Source of the DNA: an uncultured delta proteobacterium
Lineage (GTDB): Bacteria; Myxococcota_A; Polyangia; Polyangiales; Polyangiaceae
Length of the DNA stretch: 64,000 nt
Direction of reading: 5' to 3'
Assembly (NCBI GenBank): GCA_963782055.1
Contig: CAWAIF010000003.1
Coordinates: 320,001 to 384,000, forward strand
The translations under genes and the position numbers were made by a program. Below the pieces are notes generated by a model that was not told the origin of the DNA, made no database searches, and saw only the letters and a program-made list of their open reading frames with translations. Positions 32,555-57,004 of this stretch are shown one piece after another (positions within the stretch are counted from its first letter, which is position 1; every line of letters starts with the position of its first letter).

Positions 32555-32727
32555 GGGGGGCCCCTCCTGGCGCCATGCTCGGGCTCGTGCTCCCCTTCTC
32601 GCGCGCCCTCGATCTGTGCAGGATGCACGACTCTGGTCGCGCGAGGAGGCTTGCGCGCGAGCCCTGCGCGTGGCGCCTCCTCCCCTCGGTGTCGCGCTCC
32701 GCGCGCCACACGGGGAGGATGGTGCTC
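32555..32727 (+). repeat. ~170-bp intergenic repeat, copy A (diverged)
   Basis: Begins GGGGGGCCCCTCCTGG, contains CCTCCTCCCCTCGG, ends GGGGAGGATGGTGCTC; aligns by eye with 43845-44016 and the reverse complement of 56830-57004. Confidence 0.7.
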
Positions 32728-43844: not shown

Positions 43845-44016
43845 AGGAGGGGGGCCCCTCCTGGGTTCGTGCTCCGGCTCATGCTCGCGTGCTCGGCCGC
43901 GACGCGCGTGCACGAACGCCGCGCCGCTCGCGGCCTGCGCGCGCTGCGCGTGAGCCGTGCGCGCGAACCCTCCTCCCCTCGGCCATCGCTCCGCTCGGCC
44001 GGGGAGGAGGGTGCTC
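43845..44016 (+). repeat. ~170-bp intergenic repeat, copy B
   Basis: 5' hairpin AGGAGGGG-GG-CCCCTCCT; 3' inverted repeat CCCTCCTCCCC...GGGGAGGAGGG; long identical blocks shared with copy C. Confidence 0.85.
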
Positions 44017-44043
44017 CATCCTGCGCCGGCCTCGGCGAGAGGG

Positions 44044-49774: not shown

Positions 49775-50617
49775 ATGAACCTGCACCATCACCCCACGGG
49801 CGCCGCGCTGCTGGAGCGCGCAGGCGACTTCCTCCGCCGGCGCGAGACGGTGCACGCCCTGCTGCTCACCCTCGCCGCGCGGGCGCCGGAGCCGGGAGCG
49901 GCGCCGTACTACCTCGCCACCGTGGAGGATGACGCGGGCGTCGCGCTGGTGGCGCTGCGGACGCCGCCGCACGGGGTGGTGCTGAGCGCGCTGCGGGAGG
50001 GCGCGCCGGACGCCGCGATCGACCTCGTCGTGGAGGACCTCGCGCGCCGCGGCGGCGGGCTGCCCGGCGCCTTCGGTCCGCTGGAGGTGGCCGTGGAGCT
50101 CTCGCGGCGCTGGGAGGCGGCGACCGGCGCACGCGCCCGCGTGCGGCTGCGGATGAGCGTCCTCGAGCTGGACCGCGTCATCGCGCCCGCGTGGCCGCCG
50201 GGGGAGCTGCGCCTCGCGACGGAGCGCGACCTCGACCTCCTGGTGCCGTGGAGCAACGCCTTCATCGACGAGTGCGGGCTGCCGGAGGAGGACCGCCGGA
50301 TGGCGACGCGCGCGGCGATCACGCGGCGGATCGGCAACGGCCTGTTCCGCGTCTGGTCGGTGGACGGCGTGGCGGTGACCATGGCGGTGGGGGGCTCCGG
50401 CTCGCCCGCGCGCGTCGGCTCGGTCTACACGCCGCCGGCGCTGCGACGGCGCGGCTACGCGTCGGCGTGCGTGGCGAAGCTGAGCCAGGAGCTGCTCGAC
50501 CGCGGCGCGGGCAAGGTGGTGCTGAGCGCCGACGCGGCGAACCCCACGTCGAACGAGATCTACGCGGCGATCGGCTTCCGGAAGGTGGGGGACGAGGCGA
50601 TGATCGCGTTCGGGTAG
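49775..50617 (+). CDS. GNAT-family acetyltransferase
   Basis: VYTPPALRRRGYAS, NPTSNEIYAAIGF. Confidence 0.9.
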   Translation: MNLHHHPTGAALLERAGDFLRRRETVHALLLTLAARAPEPGAAPYYLATVEDDAGVALVALRTPPHGVVLSALREGAPDAAIDLVVEDLARRGGGLPGAFGPLEVAVELSRRWEAATGARARVRLRMSVLELDRVIAPAWPPGELRLATERDLDLLVPWSNAFIDECGLPEEDRRMATRAAITRRIGNGLFRVWSVDGVAVTMAVGGSGSPARVGSVYTPPALRRRGYASACVAKLSQELLDRGAGKVVLSADAANPTSNEIYAAIGFRKVGDEAMIAFG

Positions 50618-50673: not shown

Positions 50674-52593
50674 ATGCCTCGATGGACGGACGCGCCGATG
50701 TCGCTCGCGTGGCGAACGCGATGGGTCGAAGGCATGCGCGCGCGCTTCGCGGACGAACCCGCGCTCGACCGGACGCTCTCGTGGATCCGGACGATCGCGC
50801 TGGAGGACGACGCGTTCGTCCTGGCGACGGCGAGGGGCCGCGGCGTGTTCGGGTTTCCGTTCCCGTCTCGGCCCGGGCAGCGTCCGGAGCGCCTGGCGCT
50901 CGGCGAGGAGGACGCGCGCGTGCGGTTCGTCGTGCGCGCGGGGGAGGCGGCGCGCGGAGGGCGCGCGGGCGGAGACGCAGCGCCCGGGTGGAGACCGATC
51001 CTGCGCTTCGATGCGCTCTCGGTCTCCGAGCGCGACGCGCCCCACGGAGGCCCGCGCCCGCTGCGGCTCGGCCTGACGGGCGCCGAAGGATGGGCGCTGC
51101 TGCAGGCGGCGCGGGCGGCGGCCGAGGACGTGGTCGCCGGCGGCCCGCCGCCGAGAGAGACGGAGACTCGCGGCGCCGAGCCGCGCCTGTCGCAGCGGAC
51201 GGTGCTCGCGGTCTCGATGTGGACGCGCGGGCGACTGCGCGGGTCGGTCGTGTCCCCGCCCGGGCGTGCGCTCGTGATGGCGCGTCGATCCGGCGAGTGG
51301 GCATGCCAGGACCCGCGCTTCGAACGCCCCACCCTCGCCGAGCTGGACGACACCGTCTTCCAGGTCGGGCTGGTTCATGCGCCGGCCATCCCCCTCTCGC
51401 GCGACGAGATCCGCGAGCGGGACGCCTATCCCGACAAGGCGCTCTTCGTGTCGGAGGGAGCGCGCTTCGGAGCGTACATGCCGGAGGTCTTCAACATCCG
51501 CGCCCCGCGCAAGCTCGCGCCGCTGCTCCGCTCGCTCGCCATAGAGAAAGCCGGGCTCGAGGGGGTCGGCGCCCACACCCGGATCGAGGCGTGTGAGGTC
51601 AGCGAGGTGGTCGAGTCGGCGGACCGCACACGGGCGGTGGCGCTCGACGGCCCGATCGCGCGCGTCGCGGTGGACGAACCGGAGGGCCTGGCAGGCGCGG
51701 CGCGCGCCGCGGGCAGCGCGGCGTGCGCGTGGCTCGTGAGCGTGCAGCAGGAGGACGGCTCGTGGCCGGTGCGGGTGCGACCGGCGACCGGCGAGGGCGA
51801 GGGGCGCGATCCGGTGCGCGTCGCGCTCGTCGCGTTCGCCCTCGCCACCTTCGGCGTCGCCGCGCGGGTCGACGCGGCGCCCCGGGCTGCGAGCCGGGCG
51901 CTCGCCTGGCTCGCGCGCACTCGATCGGAGTGGACCCGCGATCCGGTGCGGGCGCTATGGACGCACTGCTACGTGGGACGGACCGCGACGTGCCTCGATG
52001 AAGCGGATGCGTTCGCGTCGGCCGCGGCGGGCGTACGGGAGGTCGCTCACGCCGCGGCTCGCGATCGGCTGGCCGCGCAGCACGCGGCGTCCTTCTCCCG
52101 CGAAGCCGCGGCGCGAGACGCGGACGCCGCGCGTCGCGCCGGGTCGCTCGGGGGCGCCCTCTACGAGGAGTTTCGCCGCGCGCGGGATGGTGGAAGCCCG
52201 ATGTCGCTCGCCGGGTGGGCGGAGCTCGCGGCAGCCTTCTCGAGCGATTCCCCGCAGGCGCGCGAGATCACCGGTTGGCTGCGCTCCTACCAGCTCCCGG
52301 ACGGCTCCTTCCCCGACACGACGGCGTCGCGATTCGCCTACACGCGTGGTACCGGCAAGGTCTTCGAGGTGCTCGCACGAACGTGCTCCGACGCCGAGCC
52401 CGCGCTCGAGCGTTCACTCGGGTGGCTCCGGACGATGCAGTACCGCCTCGACTCGGTCTTCTTCGTCCCGGAGGAGCACCGCGCGCGCGTGCTCGGCGGC
52501 CTGCGCCACGACGTCTACGACACCGCCGCGTGGGTCGACGCCGCGGGACATCTGCTGATCGGGCTCGCACCCATCGTGCGGAGGCCGTCGTGA
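50674..52593 (+). CDS. AMMECR1-domain + prenyltransferase/squalene-cyclase-like alpha/alpha-barrel fusion protein (copy 2)
   Basis: ATG 50674 or 50698. LLQAARAA...VSMWTRGRLRGS...DPRF...EL...YMPEVF...EKAG match AMMECR1; QW-like repeats WLVSVQQEDGSW, WLRSYQLPDGSF, WLRTMQ; end GGLRHD...WVDAAGH. Confidence 0.8.
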   Translation: MPRWTDAPMSLAWRTRWVEGMRARFADEPALDRTLSWIRTIALEDDAFVLATARGRGVFGFPFPSRPGQRPERLALGEEDARVRFVVRAGEAARGGRAGGDAAPGWRPILRFDALSVSERDAPHGGPRPLRLGLTGAEGWALLQAARAAAEDVVAGGPPPRETETRGAEPRLSQRTVLAVSMWTRGRLRGSVVSPPGRALVMARRSGEWACQDPRFERPTLAELDDTVFQVGLVHAPAIPLSRDEIRERDAYPDKALFVSEGARFGAYMPEVFNIRAPRKLAPLLRSLAIEKAGLEGVGAHTRIEACEVSEVVESADRTRAVALDGPIARVAVDEPEGLAGAARAAGSAACAWLVSVQQEDGSWPVRVRPATGEGEGRDPVRVALVAFALATFGVAARVDAAPRAASRALAWLARTRSEWTRDPVRALWTHCYVGRTATCLDEADAFASAAAGVREVAHAAARDRLAAQHAASFSREAAARDADAARRAGSLGGALYEEFRRARDGGSPMSLAGWAELAAAFSSDSPQAREITGWLRSYQLPDGSFPDTTASRFAYTRGTGKVFEVLARTCSDAEPALERSLGWLRTMQYRLDSVFFVPEEHRARVLGGLRHDVYDTAAWVDAAGHLLIGLAPIVRRPS

Positions 52594-54113
52594 CCGCCGC
52601 CTTCGTCGAGCGCGTGGAGTCCGGGCCGGGACGCCGGGACGTGCCTCTGCCGGTGCGCGAGACGTACTCGCTCTCCGAGCTCTTGCCGAGACGCGCCCCG
52701 GGGGTCGGCTATCGCGTCCCGGGAGAGATGGGGCCCCCGCTGGCGCGCGCGTTCGAGCGGGCGTTCGCGCTCCTCGAGCGCGGCTACGGCCCGCTGTCGG
52801 TGCGCGCCCCGTCCAGGCTGCTCACGCCCCGCTGGTACCGGGTCGTCCGCGCGCTGGCGCGGCACGGGCTCGCCCGGACGCTGACGCTCTCGCTCCCGCA
52901 CGAGCGCGGCATCCCCCTGTACTACTTCGACATCGCCGCGGGGCCCTGCTGGCACGCGACCGACGGCGGGCAGCCCGAGCGCACGCGCTACGGCCGCGGG
53001 GTCTCCGACGACTACGATCACGCGCTGGCCAAGGGCGTGGGCGAGTGCCTCGAGCGCGGCTCCCTGCTCTACTTCCGGATGGCGGACATGATCCGCGGCA
53101 GCGCGCGGTCGCTGCGCGCGCGCGGGCTCCCCTTCGTCGACCCTCGCGCGCTGTCGGTCTTCTCACGGGAGCAGATCGACCGGCGGCCGGCGCTCGCGGT
53201 AGACGACGGCTCGGTGTTCCAGTGGGTGCCGTGCAGGTCGCTCGTGTCGTCGCAGGAGGCGCTCGTGCCGGCGCAGCTCGTGCACTGGAACTACCCGGTC
53301 GGCTGGGGGGACGCTCCGGAGCCCATGCTGCGCGAGCAGAACTCCCACGGCGCGGCCGCGTTCTACTCGCTGGACGGTGCGCTCCTGTCCGGCCTCCTCG
53401 AGTGCCTCCAGCGCGACGGCTTCTTCCGCCACTGGCTCCGCGGGATCGCGCCGCCGCGCATCGCGACCGGCGACGTCACGCGCCCGGCCACCGTGCGCCT
53501 GCTGCAGAGCGCCCGCGACGTCGGGCTGGAGCCGATCTTGCTCGACATCACCTCGCAGCTCGGCGTCCCGACGTGCGTGTGCGTGCTCGCGCGCGACGAC
53601 GGCGAGTCGCCGGCGGTGACGGTGGGCGCGAGCTGTCGGCTCGACGCGGAGAGGGCGATCCACGACGCGCTCCTCGAGGCGGCGAGCGTGCACCACGTCG
53701 TCGCGCAGAGCCCGGAGCGCCTTCGCGCGGCGGCCGGCCGCGATCCGCTCGTGGACGCGTCCTTCGACACCGACCACCGCCTGGCCTTCTGGGCGAACCC
53801 GGAGCACGCGCGCCACCTCGCGTGGCTGCTGGGCGGGGCGACGGAGTCGCTGTCGGACTTCCGTCGCGGGTGGCGTGCGCCCGAGAGCTCGCGCGAGGGG
53901 CTCGAGCGGGTCGTCGAGGTCCTCCGTCGCCATCGCATCGCCGCGTGGTTCCACGAGGTCCGCCACGCCGCGCTCGACGAGCTCGGCTTCGCGGCCGCGC
54001 GCGTGATCGTCCCCGACCTGCTCCCCATGTACTGCGTGGACCGGAACGCGCCGCTCGGTCAGGCGCGCGCGGAGGGCGCCGCGCAGCCACCGTGGCCGCA
54101 CCCCTTTCCGTGA
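52590..54113 (+). CDS. YcaO-family protein
   Basis: GTGA overlap. GECLER, LVPAQLV, NSHGAAA...LLECLQRD, LDITSQLGVP, ALLEA, RVIVPDLLP, C-terminal PWPHPFP. Confidence 0.92.
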   Translation: MTAAFVERVESGPGRRDVPLPVRETYSLSELLPRRAPGVGYRVPGEMGPPLARAFERAFALLERGYGPLSVRAPSRLLTPRWYRVVRALARHGLARTLTLSLPHERGIPLYYFDIAAGPCWHATDGGQPERTRYGRGVSDDYDHALAKGVGECLERGSLLYFRMADMIRGSARSLRARGLPFVDPRALSVFSREQIDRRPALAVDDGSVFQWVPCRSLVSSQEALVPAQLVHWNYPVGWGDAPEPMLREQNSHGAAAFYSLDGALLSGLLECLQRDGFFRHWLRGIAPPRIATGDVTRPATVRLLQSARDVGLEPILLDITSQLGVPTCVCVLARDDGESPAVTVGASCRLDAERAIHDALLEAASVHHVVAQSPERLRAAAGRDPLVDASFDTDHRLAFWANPEHARHLAWLLGGATESLSDFRRGWRAPESSREGLERVVEVLRRHRIAAWFHEVRHAALDELGFAAARVIVPDLLPMYCVDRNAPLGQARAEGAAQPPWPHPFP

Positions 54114-54126
54114 GGTCGCGAGGCGC

Positions 54127-54396
54127 TCAGTCCGTCCCGGCGTCGTAGTAGGGGGCCTCGATGATCGGGCCGGTGTCGCTCCCCCCGTCGAAGTAGGGGG
54201 CCTCCACGATCACGCCTACGTCGACCGGTGCGTCCTTGGGCTGATCGGTGGAGGCATCGGCCGCGGGCCCCGTCGTCGCCCCGCCGCAGCTCGCGACACC
54301 GGCCGTGATGAGGAGCGCGAGCCCCCGCTCCCCGACGGCGCGCGCGCCACGCGAGAGACGGTCGACGATGGCTCGCCTGAGACGGGGATCGAGCAT
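54127..54396 (-). CDS. 89-aa lipoprotein-like peptide with a 15-aa tandem repeat, candidate precursor B
   Basis: Lipobox VASC; DVGVIVEAPYFDGGS / DTGPIIEAPYYDAGT. Confidence 0.75.
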   Translation of the reverse strand: MLDPRLRRAIVDRLSRGARAVGERGLALLITAGVASCGGATTGPAADASTDQPKDAPVDVGVIVEAPYFDGGSDTGPIIEAPYYDAGTD

Positions 54397-54474
54397 GCGC
54401 TTCGAGTATCCGCGGCGACGGAGCGCAGGTCAAGGATGAGCCGTGAGGGCGGGAGCGAGAGGGAGCACGCGGCG

Positions 54475-55377
54475 CTACGGCGTGCTGCAGAAGAGGGGGG
54501 CGACCGAGAGGAACATGCTCTCGAAGTCCGGACCCGCGAAGCACGCGGCGTAGGTCTGCGCGTCGGGGTCGCACTGCCCGTCCTCGTAGTTCTTGCATCC
54601 GCCGGCCATGGCCGCCTGCTCGCATTGCAAGCGATCGTAGTTGTCATGGTCGAAGCAGCTCTCGCACGCGTAGCTCACGCAGTCCTGCGCGGCCTGGTAT
54701 CGGTATGCGCAGCTCCCCGGCGGCGCGGGGTTCTCGCCGGAGAGGAGCTCCATGCAGCCCGCGATGTTCGCCTCGGCAATGCCTTGGTCGAAGACGAGCG
54801 GTCCCCATGCGGGGTCGGTCTTCTTGGAGTCGAGGCACTGCGCGCACGGTGCGTTTGTCCCACCGTCGGCGTCGGATAGCCACGCCGCGCACTCCTGGGC
54901 CGTGGAGCTCGTGTCGAGGCACGCCGCGAAGAAGCCCTGAAGCTGCTGCGCCGTGCACGCGTCCTGTGGCGCGCGCGCCGGCTTCGGGTCGCGCGGCGCG
55001 AAGCCGGAGGGGTCTGGCCAGACGCCCGCCCAGCTTCCGGGCGGGCAGACGTAAGCATGCGATGCAGAGTCGCAGACGGGCGAGACGGTATCGTCCACGC
55101 TGCTGCCAGTGCAGCAGGTGGGAATCGCCGAGGCGTCGGTGGGATCGCAGGGGCACTGCGTGACCGGGAACGCGCCGCCGGGGCAGCCCCAGCCGCTCGC
55201 GGTGCACACCGCGGCGACCTGCTTGCCCGGTTCACACGCCGACACGCAGCTGGCCGGCACGCCCGGGCACGAGAGCGCGCTCGTCTCGATGCCCGCGTCG
55301 GCGGGGCCCTGCTGCGCCGTGCCACACGCAGCAGCGGCGGCGCAGAGGACCCAGACCCACCTCGGCGAGATGCTCAC
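54475..55377 (-). CDS. Cys-rich lipoprotein
   Basis: Lipobox AAAC; more than 20 Cys. Confidence 0.78.
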   Translation of the reverse strand: MSISPRWVWVLCAAAAACGTAQQGPADAGIETSALSCPGVPASCVSACEPGKQVAAVCTASGWGCPGGAFPVTQCPCDPTDASAIPTCCTGSSVDDTVSPVCDSASHAYVCPPGSWAGVWPDPSGFAPRDPKPARAPQDACTAQQLQGFFAACLDTSSTAQECAAWLSDADGGTNAPCAQCLDSKKTDPAWGPLVFDQGIAEANIAGCMELLSGENPAPPGSCAYRYQAAQDCVSYACESCFDHDNYDRLQCEQAAMAGGCKNYEDGQCDPDAQTYAACFAGPDFESMFLSVAPLFCSTP

Positions 55378-55456
55378 CCCTCCACATTCCCGCGCGTGTC
55401 GCGAGCGATCAAAGGATTTTCGTGCGGTGGGACAGCCTCGTTGCTAGATTGCAGTG

Positions 55457-56596
55457 ATGGGGGCACGCCAGAGGCGGGGGATCGTCGTCGCCGCGGTGGC
55501 GACCGCCGGCGTGGCGGCGCTCTGTGTCGGCGCGGCGTGCTGCGGCGGGCAGCCCAAGGCTGCCCAGAGCTGCTCCGGCGAGCCCTCCTTGGTGCGCGGC
55601 AAGTGGCAGCTCGTCGGAGGCGACTTCCCCTGCCAGGCCGTGTGCGACGACGGGTGGACGTCGTGCACCGGCACCTGCGACTGCCGGGTCACCGCTCCGC
55701 TCCCGGAGGCTTCTCTCCAGCCCGCCGACGGGGCCGCCGGCACCGGCGTCACGCGCGTCGCCACGCTCATTGGCGCGCCGGGTGGTGTGGCCATCGAGGG
55801 CACGCGCGTCTACTACCTGGACGGCGACGCGCTGCGCGCGGTCGACGCGGCGGGCGGGCCGGTGACCACCCTCGCGACCGACCTGACGCCCGCCGGCGGC
55901 GTCGCCGTGCGCGACGGCGCGGTCTACGTGCCGGTCGCGCAGTCGCCCAACTCGCCGGGATTGGTCGTGGTCGTGGCCGCGGACGGGGGCACGAGCGCGC
56001 TCGTGGCCGACGCCGACCCCGGCGCGGGGATCGAGGTGGACGACGCGTCGGTGCTCTGGCTCTCCCGCTCCGGGTTCGACGCCGGACCCGGCGTGGTTCG
56101 CTCCGCGCTCGCCGGCGGCGCGTCGACGTGGCTCCTCCCGGCCGACGACGACGCGGGCGCCTACAAGTCCTTCGCCGGGTCGAGGAACGGCGTCTACGGC
56201 ATCGCGGGCGGCGCGCTCGCCCTCGCGCGCCTCGAGGGCGGCGTGATCGCCGTCGGCGATGGCGGCGTGGCCGTGGCGGCGTGCCGGCTCGGCTGGGAGG
56301 TCGCGATCACCCGCGACGCCGATGGTGGCGAGTCTCTCGACGCGATCGTGGACGCTGCGCTCCCTTACCGCTCGCCGCTGAACGGCGCCGTGACAGCGCT
56401 GAGCTGCGCGAGTGACACCACCGTGCTCATGGCGACGGACGAGCGGATCTACGCCGTGGGGGGCGGCACCTCCACGGCCCTGCTCGTCGACGGGCAGGCG
56501 GGCATCGCCTACGTCGCCGGGACCGCGAGCCGCGTCGTCTGGATCACCCGCGCCACCCAGTCGCAGCCTGGGAGCGTGTGGGTCGGACCTCGATGA
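55457..56596 (+). CDS. Exported protein with Cys-rich N-domain and beta-propeller-like repeats
   Basis: Signal ending GAACC; repeats GVAIEGTRVYY, GVAVRDGAVYV, GIEVDDASVLW. Confidence 0.72.
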   Translation: MGARQRRGIVVAAVATAGVAALCVGAACCGGQPKAAQSCSGEPSLVRGKWQLVGGDFPCQAVCDDGWTSCTGTCDCRVTAPLPEASLQPADGAAGTGVTRVATLIGAPGGVAIEGTRVYYLDGDALRAVDAAGGPVTTLATDLTPAGGVAVRDGAVYVPVAQSPNSPGLVVVVAADGGTSALVADADPGAGIEVDDASVLWLSRSGFDAGPGVVRSALAGGASTWLLPADDDAGAYKSFAGSRNGVYGIAGGALALARLEGGVIAVGDGGVAVAACRLGWEVAITRDADGGESLDAIVDAALPYRSPLNGAVTALSCASDTTVLMATDERIYAVGGGTSTALLVDGQAGIAYVAGTASRVVWITRATQSQPGSVWVGPR

Positions 56597-56859
56597 CGGG
56601 GCTCGCCCGAGCCCGGCGGCGGGTCGTGTACGCCGCTCTCGCGGGTGGCGCCCTCGCGATGGGGCTCTCCCTCGGCGTCGCCTGTCAGTCGACCTCGAGT
56701 GCGCCGTGCGCCGGCCTGGTCGAGCACATGCACGGTCATTGGGTCGGGGGTGGCTACGGCGACAGCTTCTGCACGCCTGGAGTGCGACCCGGGCTGGGCC
56801 TCTGGTGTCTTCGGGACGTGCACGGCGGCGCACCCTCCTCCCCGCCCGAGCGAGCGTGA
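56593..56859 (+). pseudogene. Truncated, frameshifted paralog of the N-terminus of the upstream gene
   Basis: ATGA overlap. Same signal and Cys pattern; CDPGWASGVFGTC continues in another frame; interrupted by repeat copy C. Confidence 0.55.
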
Positions 56860-57004
56860 GCGAGCGATGGGCCAGGGGAGGAGGCGTCGCGCGCACGGCT
56901 CACGCGCAGCGCGCGCAGGCCGCGAGGGTCGTGACCCTCGTGCACCGCCGTCGCGGCCGAGCACGCGAGCATGAGCCGGAGCACGACGCCAGGAGGGGCC
57001 CCCC
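56830..57004 (-). repeat. ~170-bp intergenic repeat, copy C
   Basis: Its reverse complement shares TCGTGCTCCGGCTCATGCTCGCGTGCTCGGCCGCGACG and CTCGCGGCCTGCGCGCGCTGCGCGTGAGCCGTGCGCGCGA exactly with copy B. Confidence 0.85.

Follow-up and report, generated by a model that had tools for sequence, protein, structure and literature searches.

A conserved AMMECR1-barrel fusion and YcaO gene pair with a convergent repeat-peptide gene forms a candidate RiPP-like cassette in a Polyangiaceae genome

We analysed a 64,000-nucleotide stretch (hereafter, the window) of contig CAWAIF010000003.1 from the genome assembly of an uncultured member of the Polyangiaceae (GCA_963782055.1). The window contains a cassette of three genes spanning ~3.7 kb, which encode an AMMECR1-barrel fusion protein, a YcaO enzyme and, in convergent orientation, an 89-aa peptide (Table 1). 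The layout agrees with that described in the first-pass annotation of this DNA: the TGA stop codon of the fusion gene is overlapped by the GTG start codon of the YcaO gene, the 507-aa YcaO product terminates with PWPHPFP, and the repeat peptide is encoded on the opposite strand, with its stop codon beginning at position 54127, 13 nt away from the YcaO stop codon, which ends at 54113. The start position of the YcaO is shared by its homologues; for the fusion gene, an alternative start is located 8 codons downstream, at 50698, and the database's own call is a 631-aa protein (P0004).

Table 1. Coordinates of the cassette genes and their features (positions within the window).
Feature	Coordinates	Strand	Description
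Fusion gene	50674..52593	+	639 aa; three domains (N-domain, AMMECR1 fold, (alpha/alpha)6 barrel)
Fusion N-terminal domain	50674..51084	+	aa 1-137
AMMECR1-fold domain	51085..51678	+	aa 138-335
(alpha/alpha)6 barrel	51679..52590	+	aa 336-639; single-domain squalene-hopene-cyclase/class II terpene cyclase-like
YcaO gene	52590..54113	+	507 aa; GTG start, GTGA overlap; P-H-P-F-P C-terminus
Peptide gene	54127..54396	-	89 aa; convergent with YcaO, 13-nt gap
Two 14-residue acidic repeats	54130..54216	-	aa 61-74 and 76-89; bases of aa 75 included
Peptide conserved N-terminal part	54280..54396	-	aa 1-39
Promoter-like site TTGACC-17-GATACT	54405..54433	-	just upstream of the peptide ATG; consensus match only

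The YcaO protein matches the Pfam profile PF02624 over residues 138-477 (E = 1.1e-51; 176.5 bits against a cut-off of 25.7), which places it in the YcaO superfamily. The nearest relatives of known structure, with similarity spanning the whole YcaO domain, are the cyanobactin heterocyclases TruD, LynD and MusD (E = 5e-44 to 6e-42), which have a PxPxP-type C-terminus as well; solved relatives also include protein-modifying representatives, namely, archaeal MJ1094, 6ci7, and E. coli YcaO, an S12 methylthiotransferase accessory factor. Both the G-E-x-L-E-R glutamate/arginine motif and the C-terminal P-H-P-F-P are invariant among the aligned YcaO sequences (37/37 in each case). The PxPxP motif is canonical for azoline-forming YcaOs (bioRxiv 10.1101/2025.07.11.664356), and the window enzyme, which carries it, is by its sequence of this type. 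Counting against the reading that we favour below, the score of this YcaO with the SagD family model TIGR03604 is 177.6 bits, under the curated cut-off of 219.25. At the N-terminus, profile position 97 is aligned to TruD residue 377, which we take to lie inside the YcaO domain of TruD, a placement that would not allow for an RRE here.

This is the only YcaO in the genome, which is 97% complete. The first-pass annotation had seen no E1-like/ThiF protein, TfuA or FMN dehydrogenase near the gene, and indeed, none is encoded by the 10 flanking genes tested, which include no nitroreductase gene either. The genome as a whole yielded no match to TfuA (PF07812), the SagB-type FMN dehydrogenase (TIGR03605) or the SagC-type/E1-like partner (TIGR03603). 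The cassette resembles TOMM/LAP systems of the McbBCD and SagBCD type in that a putative YcaO cyclodehydratase adjoins a small putative precursor, but differs from these in lacking a dehydrogenase and any SagC/E1-type model match in the genome, and in its peptide family. The lack of a canonical C protein is shared with the stand-alone D proteins of bottromycin biosynthesis, TfuA-YcaO thioamidation and DapY-catalysed imidazoline formation, and YcaOs devoid of an E1-like partner can yield natural products (PMC4603692); unlike in those systems, the YcaO considered here is accompanied by a dedicated protein of an unrelated family, which is conserved and in some cases fused to it.

The structure of this companion was predicted with confidence (pLDDT 91.4). 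The N-terminal domain is modelled as two helices and three beta-hairpins, with a conserved P-L-R-x-G-L stretch at its end. PDB searches with this domain gave no structure that clearly resembles it (best Z 4.4; Foldseek E = 0.23), so that an RRE-like role is only a candidate assignment, a point that counts against the reading favoured below; comparison with Pfam yielded no match at E<=10. The central domain matches the Pfam AMMECR1 profile (PF01871) over residues 144-297 with a score below the cut-off (E = 1.7e-4; 21.6 bits against 25), and PF01871 is carried by 33 of the 43 fusion homologues among those listed. Profile matches of this domain to the AMMECR1 family range from E = 2e-13, for 1zq7, to 1.5e-5, and the model confirms the AMMECR1 fold (PH0010/1vaj, E = 8e-9, TMt 0.81), so that domain and fold alike assign the protein to the family. 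AMMECR1 proteins occur in archaea and in eukaryotes, including humans, and are not known to have any biochemical activity (PMC2034487; see also PMC5502304). Their characteristic motifs are R-G-C-h-G, in which the Cys is predicted to be catalytic, and D-x-R-aromatic (PMC2034487). Like PH0010, MM0484 and ST0229, the fusion protein retains the D-x-R-aromatic motif (D213, R215 and F216) and the L-P-x-V/F stretch, whereas the predicted catalytic Cys is replaced by Ser191 (Ser in 39 of 41 sequences, Cys in 1 and Gly in 1) and the domain is fused to two others. The rest of the predicted active-site frame is conserved, with R189 present in 41/41 sequences and D213 together with R215 in 40/41. The score with TIGR04335, the model of AmmeMemoRadiSam system protein A, is 24.6 bits, far from the cut-off of 99, and in contrast to that protein, the fusion is linked to YcaO rather than to Memo and radical-SAM genes, a scan of the 10 flanking genes having revealed no member of these two families.

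The C-terminal barrel is similar in the model to single-domain squalene-hopene-cyclase-like and class II terpene cyclase barrels (8pak, E = 1.6e-5; MstE, 6sbd, E = 8e-4; also 8paj), with which it shares the (alpha/alpha)6 fold and QxxDG-type repeats, here in the form Q-x-x-D-G-S-[WF], which occurs twice, at residue 358 and at residue 540; the match to Pfam SQHop_cyclase_C is sub-threshold (residues 348-418, E = 3.2e-5). Class II terpene cyclases and squalene-hopene cyclases are defined by the DxDD general-acid motif, which is absent anywhere in the fusion protein. The barrel further differs from these enzymes in its marginal sequence similarity and in its context, which is one of putative peptide modification rather than of isoprenoid genes. 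Nine polar residues of the barrel are invariant (R382, E517, R558, K562, E565, R611, H612, D622 and H626).

Eight related loci, labelled as Polyangiaceae/Myxococcales or metagenomic, were available for comparison, and their surroundings differ. The fusion gene is located directly upstream of the YcaO gene in all seven loci with enough flanking sequence, and a convergent peptide gene follows the YcaO gene in all eight, whereas none of the 10 other window neighbours tested recurs in these loci. The stop of the fusion gene and the start of the YcaO gene overlap by 4-11 nt in all 6 loci with both ends visible, and the gap between the YcaO and peptide genes is 3-36 nt (6 loci). Given its recurrence at eight further loci amid other neighbours, the arrangement is not due to chance, and the genes for the fusion, YcaO and the peptide form a conserved module. 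The cassette is small and rare: it was not found in 6 genomes of the same genus, 60 genomes of relatives and 400 sampled genomes of the phylum. Such scarcity could be taken to indicate an incidental adjacency or decaying remnants with no joint function, but the frames are intact, the catalytic motifs are conserved in 37 YcaOs and 41 fusions, the synteny recurs in unrelated surroundings and the fusion family comprises as many as 266 representatives at E<=1e-30, so that this explanation is strongly disfavoured and appears extremely improbable. In the reading that we favour below, the three genes represent a single accessory, horizontally spread RiPP-like cassette.

The pairing extends beyond myxobacteria. 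Adjacent fusion and YcaO genes are present in eight more distant loci of the CPR/Bdellovibrionales type (L011, L013, L017, L019, L031, L032, L036 and L044), and of the best 150 representatives of the fusion, three (P0209, P0221 and P0224) are single-chain AMMECR1-barrel-YcaO polypeptides, resembling the fused E1-like/RRE-YcaO proteins TruD, LynD and MusD in their multi-domain organization with a C-terminal YcaO. All 13 fusion-linked YcaOs belong to one 28-row clade (SH-aLRT 97), compared to 0 of the 56 rows outside it. The first-pass annotation had proposed that the AMMECR1 fusion takes the place of the usual partner or acts as a second tailoring enzyme, and had named beforehand a lack of conservation of the adjacency elsewhere as the outcome that would speak against it. 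Given that the adjacency is conserved, in the seven myxobacterial-type loci as well as in the eight distant ones, this interpretation is supported, as it is by the single clade, the natural fusions and the convergent peptide conserved in all eight related loci; which of the two roles applies is a matter of inference. In the wider clade, either gene can occur unpaired, which counts against the favoured reading: the fusion is missing from the CPR-type clusters L030, L035 and L042, with ~10 kb covered on both sides, and five loci (L012, L014, L015, L016 and L018) encode the fusion with no YcaO within the stretch covered, a YcaO being found elsewhere in one of these five genomes, which are small and probably incomplete.

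In the CPR relatives, small Cys/Gly/Asp-rich anchored peptides adjoin the same enzymes, and a nitroreductase-family gene and Cys/Gly/Ser-rich peptides are found as well. In this respect, these loci resemble the CPR LAP clusters, which comprise a YcaO, a nitroreductase, a peptidase and Cys/Gly/Ser-rich peptides, with no AMMECR1 protein named in the available text of the respective study (Sharrar et al. 2020, PMC7298704). In the literature searched, AMMECR1 and YcaO are not named together in any paper; new here are the myxobacterial branch of the AMMECR1-YcaO pairing and its peptide family.

Some of these observations would also fit a scenario in which YcaO modifies the peptide by itself, like stand-alone YcaOs, and the AMMECR1-barrel protein, rather than being a partner, carries out a second tailoring step, in which it acts on the invariant hydrophobic-hydrophobic-Glu-Ala-Ala/Pro units of the peptide or installs or prepares a nucleophile for YcaO. 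The retained AMMECR1 active-site frame (R189, D213 and R215), with Ser in place of the family Cys, and the invariant polar residues of the barrel are consistent with a catalytic role, as are the CPR-type clusters devoid of the fusion and locus L012, which has the fusion and a peptide gene but no YcaO in the stretch covered. Furthermore, DapY is a PxPxP YcaO that uses a non-classical nucleophile installed by other enzymes (bioRxiv 10.1101/2025.07.11.664356). Nevertheless, we consider this scenario unlikely: single-chain fusions and the 4-11-nt overlaps suggest a stoichiometric complex, even if tailoring enzymes can be fused too, AMMECR1 is not known to catalyse any reaction, and the barrel lacks DxDD.

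The peptide belongs to a newly recognised family of 74 members, with a conserved lipobox-like N-terminus followed by 0-8 acidic repeats built on hydrophobic-hydrophobic-Glu-Ala-Ala/Pro; in the window peptide, the two repeats have the form G-x-I-[VI]-E-A-P-Y-[FY]-D-[GA]-G-[ST]-D. Repeated units are also a feature of the PatE-type precursors of cyanobactins, which contain 1-4 cores with short recognition sequences on either side (PMC4663559). Unlike in cyanobactin systems, the repeats are acidic and mostly Cys-free, the N-terminus is signal- or lipobox-like, the putative partner combines an AMMECR1 fold with an (alpha/alpha)6 barrel instead of being E1-like/RRE, and the cassette includes no genes for a PatA/PatG-type protease, oxidase or prenyltransferase. 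When the 10 flanking genes were compared with Pfam, no peptidase family was named, and three of the genes had no match at all; A-Y-D-[AG] occurs 11 times in the peptide family versus 0.3 in shuffles, and AYDG is a PatG signature (PMC4663559). A Cys-Gly-Gly anchor motif is recognisable in 73 of the 74 members, and both Cys37 and Thr41 are invariant in a six-sequence alignment. All 73 peptide cores contain Ser, Thr or Cys somewhere, and Gly-[Ser/Thr] is about twofold more frequent in the family than in shuffles. Nonetheless, judging from the sequences, the peptide is poorly accounted for by classical azole chemistry, which counts against the favoured reading: a single Cys is present in 62 of 73 peptides, and 105 of the 316 repeat units are free of Cys, Ser and Thr, the invariant part being hydrophobic-hydrophobic-Glu-Ala.

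The lipobox has the pattern [LVI][ASTVI][GAS]C and follows a signal-type hydrophobic stretch. Residues 1-39 of the window peptide encompass a basic stretch, an 11-residue hydrophobic stretch of the kind that characterises signal peptides and V-A-S-C-G-G, in which V-A-S-C, ending in Cys37, is a canonical lipobox; accordingly, the peptide could simply be an exported lipoprotein. Moreover, being convergent and preceded by its own promoter-like site (1 found upstream versus a shuffle mean of 0.1), the peptide gene is not co-transcribed with that of YcaO. Both points count against a role as a YcaO substrate and, with the protein-modifying enzymes among the solved relatives, would fit a peptide that is only carried along, as an anchor, immunity or accessory factor, while the target of the YcaO-fusion pair is a different one, for instance, a protein of the cell or a small molecule. 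However, the peptide is the sole neighbour conserved with the pair (8/8 loci, versus 0/10 for other neighbours), and across the family, the residue preceding the Cys fits a lipobox in just 21 of 73 members (Ser/Gly/Ala), with His in 45. Furthermore, 20 of the 74 members have the same length of the longest contig as a YcaO or fusion match, a proxy that is no proof of co-location, and by the same proxy, short two- or three-repeat peptides go with the YcaOs that are 81-84% identical, suggesting that peptide subfamily and YcaO subclade go together. Considering also that the nearest solved YcaOs are peptide heterocyclases rather than protein-modifying enzymes, a lipoprotein-only function of the peptide seems quite improbable.

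On balance, we lean towards a RiPP-like system with the fusion as the partner of YcaO and the peptide as the substrate of YcaO, a reading that we hold to be slightly more probable than not. The cytoplasmic YcaO would activate backbone amides of the small peptide with ATP, and the AMMECR1-barrel protein would be its physical partner, in the textbook place of the E1-like/RRE protein, binding the peptide, potentiating YcaO, or both. The conserved N-terminus of the peptide would be the leader, through which the peptide is recognised, and would probably double as an export or lipoprotein signal, with modification taking place in the acidic repeat region or in the invariant Cys-Gly-Gly-x-Thr stretch. 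The likeliest chemistry would be the formation of thiazoline or oxazoline at Cys37, Thr41 or Gly-Ser/Thr sites; because no dehydrogenase gene is present, the rings would stay azolines.

YcaO enzymes provide one of the main routes to peptides with a modified backbone, and what these enzymes bind and how fast they act is determined by their partner proteins. A conserved and sometimes fused AMMECR1-family partner would add a new class of such proteins. Taken further, AMMECR1-barrel proteins could be a third, undescribed class of YcaO partners beside E1-like/RRE proteins and TfuA, with the myxobacterial pair making an exported, possibly lipid-anchored, multi-repeat acidic peptide, the hydrophobic-hydrophobic-Glu-Ala-Ala/Pro units of which, a third of them Cys/Ser/Thr-free, are modified by a chemistry new for YcaO, for example, with a partner-prepared nucleophile; we put this forward as a speculative and rather doubtful proposal. 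Reconstitution would be more practical than for the CPR clusters, given that the cassette is compact, has a defined 74-member peptide family and comes from a large-genome lineage, as opposed to uncultured CPR bacteria. If the proposal is true, the pairing would make AMMECR1 function directly testable and provide this enigmatic fold with its first biochemical context.

The cassette, made up of the gene of the AMMECR1-barrel fusion protein (hereafter the fusion), the YcaO gene and the gene of the 89-aa repeat peptide, lies in a part of the window with a G+C content of ~73-76%. The fusion TGA and the YcaO GTG start overlap as GTGA, and a promoter-like site is found just 5' of the peptide ATG. On re-reading, the open reading frames, this overlap, the proline-rich YcaO terminus and the 13-nt gap between the convergent stops proved to have been described correctly throughout in the first-pass annotation. 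We have little doubt that the three genes form one functional unit. The neighbouring GNAT-family acetyltransferase gene was considered as a further member and rejected, given that it is absent from all related loci; it is probably unrelated to the cassette. On the other side of the cassette, the window encodes a Cys-rich protein of 300 aa whose N-terminus is lipoprotein-like (54475-55377, minus strand) and a 380-aa protein (55454-56596, plus strand), both without a Pfam family and not conserved with the cassette. A ~165-base sequence at window positions ~56826-57000, ~43853-44017 and ~32559-32725, of which the genome has at least 30 copies with 70-93% identity, resembles a small repeat of dispersed type.

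Coordinates of the cassette genes and of the adjacent acetyltransferase gene in the window
Feature	Position	Strand	Remarks
GNAT-family acetyltransferase gene	49775-50617	+	ends 57 nt before the fusion gene, same strand
Fusion ORF	50674-52593	+	639 aa
YcaO ORF	52590-54113	+	507 aa; GTG start; C-terminal P-W-P-H-P-F-P
Peptide ORF	54396 down to 54127	-	89 aa; stop 13 nt from the YcaO stop

Word-based searches yielded 43 fusion homologues, none below 46% identity, and 54 YcaOs with identities of 46% or more, with 12 contigs apparently common to the two lists, as a proxy for co-location. We compared 11 loci from species genomes, reached via the fusion alignment, and 80 from metagenomes, reached via the YcaO alignment. 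In the closest set (L009, L010 and L020-L025; YcaO 59-81% identical to that of the window), the fusion gene is directly upstream of YcaO in all seven loci having upstream sequence, and a homologue of the 89-aa peptide is encoded convergently, downstream of YcaO, in all eight, several of which are near-duplicates, with six distinct peptides among them. This genome-neighbourhood comparison bears out the coupling of the three genes proposed in the first-pass annotation. The same search found none of the ten other window genes around the cassette in these eight loci. The YcaO start and the fusion stop overlap by 4 nt in the window, L009 and L024 and by 8-11 nt in L020, L010 and L023, and 3-36 nt separate the YcaO and peptide stops (six loci). 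The cassette is rare: the six same-genus genomes and 60 relatives sampled yielded no close YcaO homologue, and 400 sampled genomes of the phylum yielded no fusion at E<=1e-20. The same-genus genomes are only ~70% identical at the DNA level and not syntenic at the cassette, as judged by insertion-site comparison, and small shares (0.06-0.13) of the searched sequence words turned up in three metagenome DNA runs only, with no RNA dataset among the runs listed.

The fusion has only sub-threshold Pfam matches (AMMECR1, E 1.7e-4; SQHop_cyclase_C, E 3.2e-5), in agreement with NCBIfam, and its fold is predicted with a pLDDT of 91.4 and a pTM of 0.89 (41-sequence alignment). In Foldseek searches of the PDB, its middle part resembles the AMMECR1 proteins PH0010 (1vaj, E 8e-9, TMt 0.81), MM0484 and ST0229, and its C-terminal part resembles single-domain squalene-hopene-cyclase-like or class II terpene cyclase barrels (8pak, E 1.6e-5; 6ij1; MstE, 6sbd), with glycoside-hydrolase (alpha/alpha)6 barrels ranking after these. 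A profile search of PDB sequences aligned the L-R-G-S-V/I motif of the fusion family with L-R-G-C-I-G of archaeal AMMECR1 proteins. In the accessible text of Balaji and Aravind (PMC2034487), a catalytic role is predicted for the R-G-C cysteine and the D-x-R-aromatic motif of the AMMECR1 family is defined; Ser replaces this cysteine in 39 of 41 fusion sequences, and the D-x-R-aromatic motif is retained in 39-40 of them. The barrel carries two QxxDGS[WF] motifs, and no DxDD motif was found in it. The N-domain (first 137 residues) is predicted to consist of two helices and three hairpins (pLDDT 76.7 when folded alone) and has no convincing structural match (highest VIA-align Z of 4.4 among 48,161 chains; lowest Foldseek E of 0.23); an Atlas search gave no usable match, and neither this domain nor the YcaO N-terminus had a Pfam match at E<=10 in any of the three lineages tried for each. 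In one homologue, P0046 (763 aa), the sequence diverges close to the barrel end and continues as a long Cys-rich extension at the C-terminus, which may reflect a frameshift or a different fusion.

YcaO, the sole YcaO of the genome (7.58 Mb, 97% complete), belongs to the Pfam YcaO family (E 1.1e-51), again in agreement with NCBIfam. Its P-H-P-F-P end and the Glu/Arg motif positions are invariant in a 37-sequence alignment, and among solved structures a profile search places it nearest to the cyanobactin heterocyclases TruD, LynD and MusD (E 5e-44 to 6e-42). The match to TruD begins at profile position 97, corresponding to TruD residue 377; given the domain limits of TruD, the window protein would have no space for an RRE or E1-like module. 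With the SagD-family NCBIfam model, the protein reaches 177.6, below the cut-off of 219.25. Neither E1/ThiF nor TfuA nor nitroreductase genes were found among the 10 genes flanking the cassette, and models of TfuA, SagB-type dehydrogenases and SagC-type partners had zero matches in the 97%-complete genome; the first-pass annotation, which had seen no E1-like/ThiF protein, TfuA or FMN dehydrogenase nearby, thus holds for the flanks and, for the partner models searched, genome-wide. In L009 (5100-5300), as in L021 and L022, a single-base difference immediately ahead of the YcaO stop yields P-H-P-F-R instead of P-H-P-F-P; in the L009 lineage, the stop is removed and the frame continues for ~60 codons across the convergent peptide gene, which may reflect either misassembly or a genuine frameshift.

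The 89-aa peptide matches no Pfam or NCBIfam family. A profile of six peptides gathered a family of 74 proteins, 20 of which are apparently on the same contig as a YcaO or fusion match (again a co-location proxy), the other contigs being mostly shorter than 3 kb. The conserved N-terminal part, located in 73 of the 74, comprises a basic stretch, a hydrophobic stretch of 11-12 residues and x-Cys-Gly-Gly, most often followed by Ser/Gln-Thr. The residue preceding Cys is His in 45 peptides, Ser in 17 and Gly or Ala in 4, indicating a canonical lipobox in the subfamily of the window peptide but not in most members. The Cys of Cys-Gly-Gly is the only one in 62 of 73 peptides. Two alternative assignments of this region were rejected by eye against consensus sequences: a double-glycine leader ending at Gly-Gly, as the spacing of the hydrophobic and Glu positions is unlike the consensus, and a Tat signal, as the Arg pair lies ~15 residues before the hydrophobic stretch.

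The remainder of the peptides is rich in Ala, Gly and Pro and acidic (Asp+Glu 16.9%, Lys+Arg 1.2%), with 0-8 repeat units per peptide (mean 4.8), built on a hydrophobic-hydrophobic-Glu-Ala-Ala/Pro core often followed by Asp-[Ala/Gly]-Gly-[Ser/Thr]-Asp. Compared with composition-preserving shuffles, [VILM][VI]-E-A occurs 185 times versus 1.5, D-[AG]-G-[ST] 76 versus 3.2 and G-[ST] 200 versus 103, ratios that overstate independence because the peptides are related. Cys, Ser or Thr is present in 211 of 316 units and Gly-[Cys/Ser/Thr] in 117; the window peptide has two 14-residue units, both ending in Gly-Ser/Thr-Asp. In the subfamily nearest to it (L025:559-843, P0296, P0303), E-A-P is directly followed by A-Y-D-[AG]-G. 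AYDG is given as the PatG macrocyclase signature of cyanobactins in the accessible text of PMC4663559, and A-Y-D-[AG] is seen 11 times versus 0.3 in shuffles; given that the 10 flanking genes (three without a match) include no Pfam peptidase family, the likeness may be coincidence.

Other loci that encode the fusion are labelled Saccharibacteria, Moranbacteria, Paceibacterota, other Parcubacteria and Bdellovibrionales. With HMMs of its three parts, the fusion was found adjoining or within ~5 kb of YcaO in eight such loci (L011, L013, L017, L019, L031, L032, L036 and L044). Also present in these clusters are a nitroreductase-family gene, in some cases a second YcaO, a phosphoribosyltransferase/beta-propeller fusion, a membrane protein of 360-390 aa and methyltransferase/AMP-binding genes, as well as small membrane-anchored peptides in which an A-[HK]-A-D-[VA]-P-like motif precedes Cys/Gly/Asp-rich tails. 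They resemble the LAP clusters of CPR bacteria reported by Sharrar et al. (PMC7298704), the accessible text of which names YcaO, nitroreductase and peptidase and no AMMECR1 protein. In L012, L013, L014 and L017, a recurrent 545-aa phosphoribosyltransferase-like/PQQ-type beta-propeller fusion and the family-less 360-390-aa membrane protein stand beside the fusion/YcaO/peptide genes. In L032 (3295-9364), a gene for a small peptide and one for a membrane protein lie between two YcaO genes of the same clade; rhodanese and DsbA-like thioredoxin genes come next, which hints at sulfur or disulfide handling.

In a quick maximum-likelihood tree (IQ-TREE, SH-aLRT support) of 84 YcaO rows, built after excluding matches with E>1e-20 or under 300 aa in length and merging seven identical sequences, all 13 fusion-linked rows fall into one 28-row clade (SH-aLRT 97) and none among the 56 rows outside it. 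The five myxobacterial rows form a subclade with support of 100 on a long branch. Within the 28-row clade, nine rows are uninformative on linkage, their upstream sequence being shorter than 1.4 kb, and six lack the fusion despite 2.4-9.7 kb upstream; L030, L042 and L035 (YcaO identical to that of the short-flank row L034) lack it despite ~10 kb on both sides. Conversely, five fusion loci have no YcaO within the stretch examined; of the five small genomes concerned, just one encodes a YcaO at another site. When all 1.84 billion representatives were scanned by HMMER using the fusion profile, 266 proteins reached E<=1e-30, and three of the best 150 of these (1131, 1055 and 1043 aa) additionally have a YcaO domain at the C-terminus, matching the order of the two window genes.

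The start/stop overlap, the cross-phylum linkage and these natural fusions make it very probable that the fusion and YcaO work together physically. A complex prediction of fusion residues 1-335, YcaO and the peptide, with the peptide as the partner (score 0.00, peptide fold uncertain), counts neither for nor against the model. The fusion may act as a partner that binds the leader or activates YcaO, or it may be a tailoring enzyme. With some reserve, we favour the peptide as the substrate, given that it is the only conserved neighbour, resembles a leader with a repeated core and has analogues in the CPR clusters. By sequence, YcaO belongs to the azoline-forming type, and candidate modification sites in the peptide are Cys37, Thr41 and the Gly-Ser/Thr sites. 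However, the most conserved repeat feature lacks a classical nucleophile and a dehydrogenase is absent. According to the accessible part of a preprint (10.1101/2025.07.11.664356), PxPxP YcaOs are able to use other nucleophiles. No paper naming both AMMECR1 and YcaO was found in the main texts searched, which include few subscription journals, and no description of the pairing was found in the accessible parts of the literature on YcaO with CPR, myxobacteria or cyclase/prenyltransferase. New from the window are the absence of the dehydrogenase, the myxobacterial branch and its convergent repeat-peptide family.
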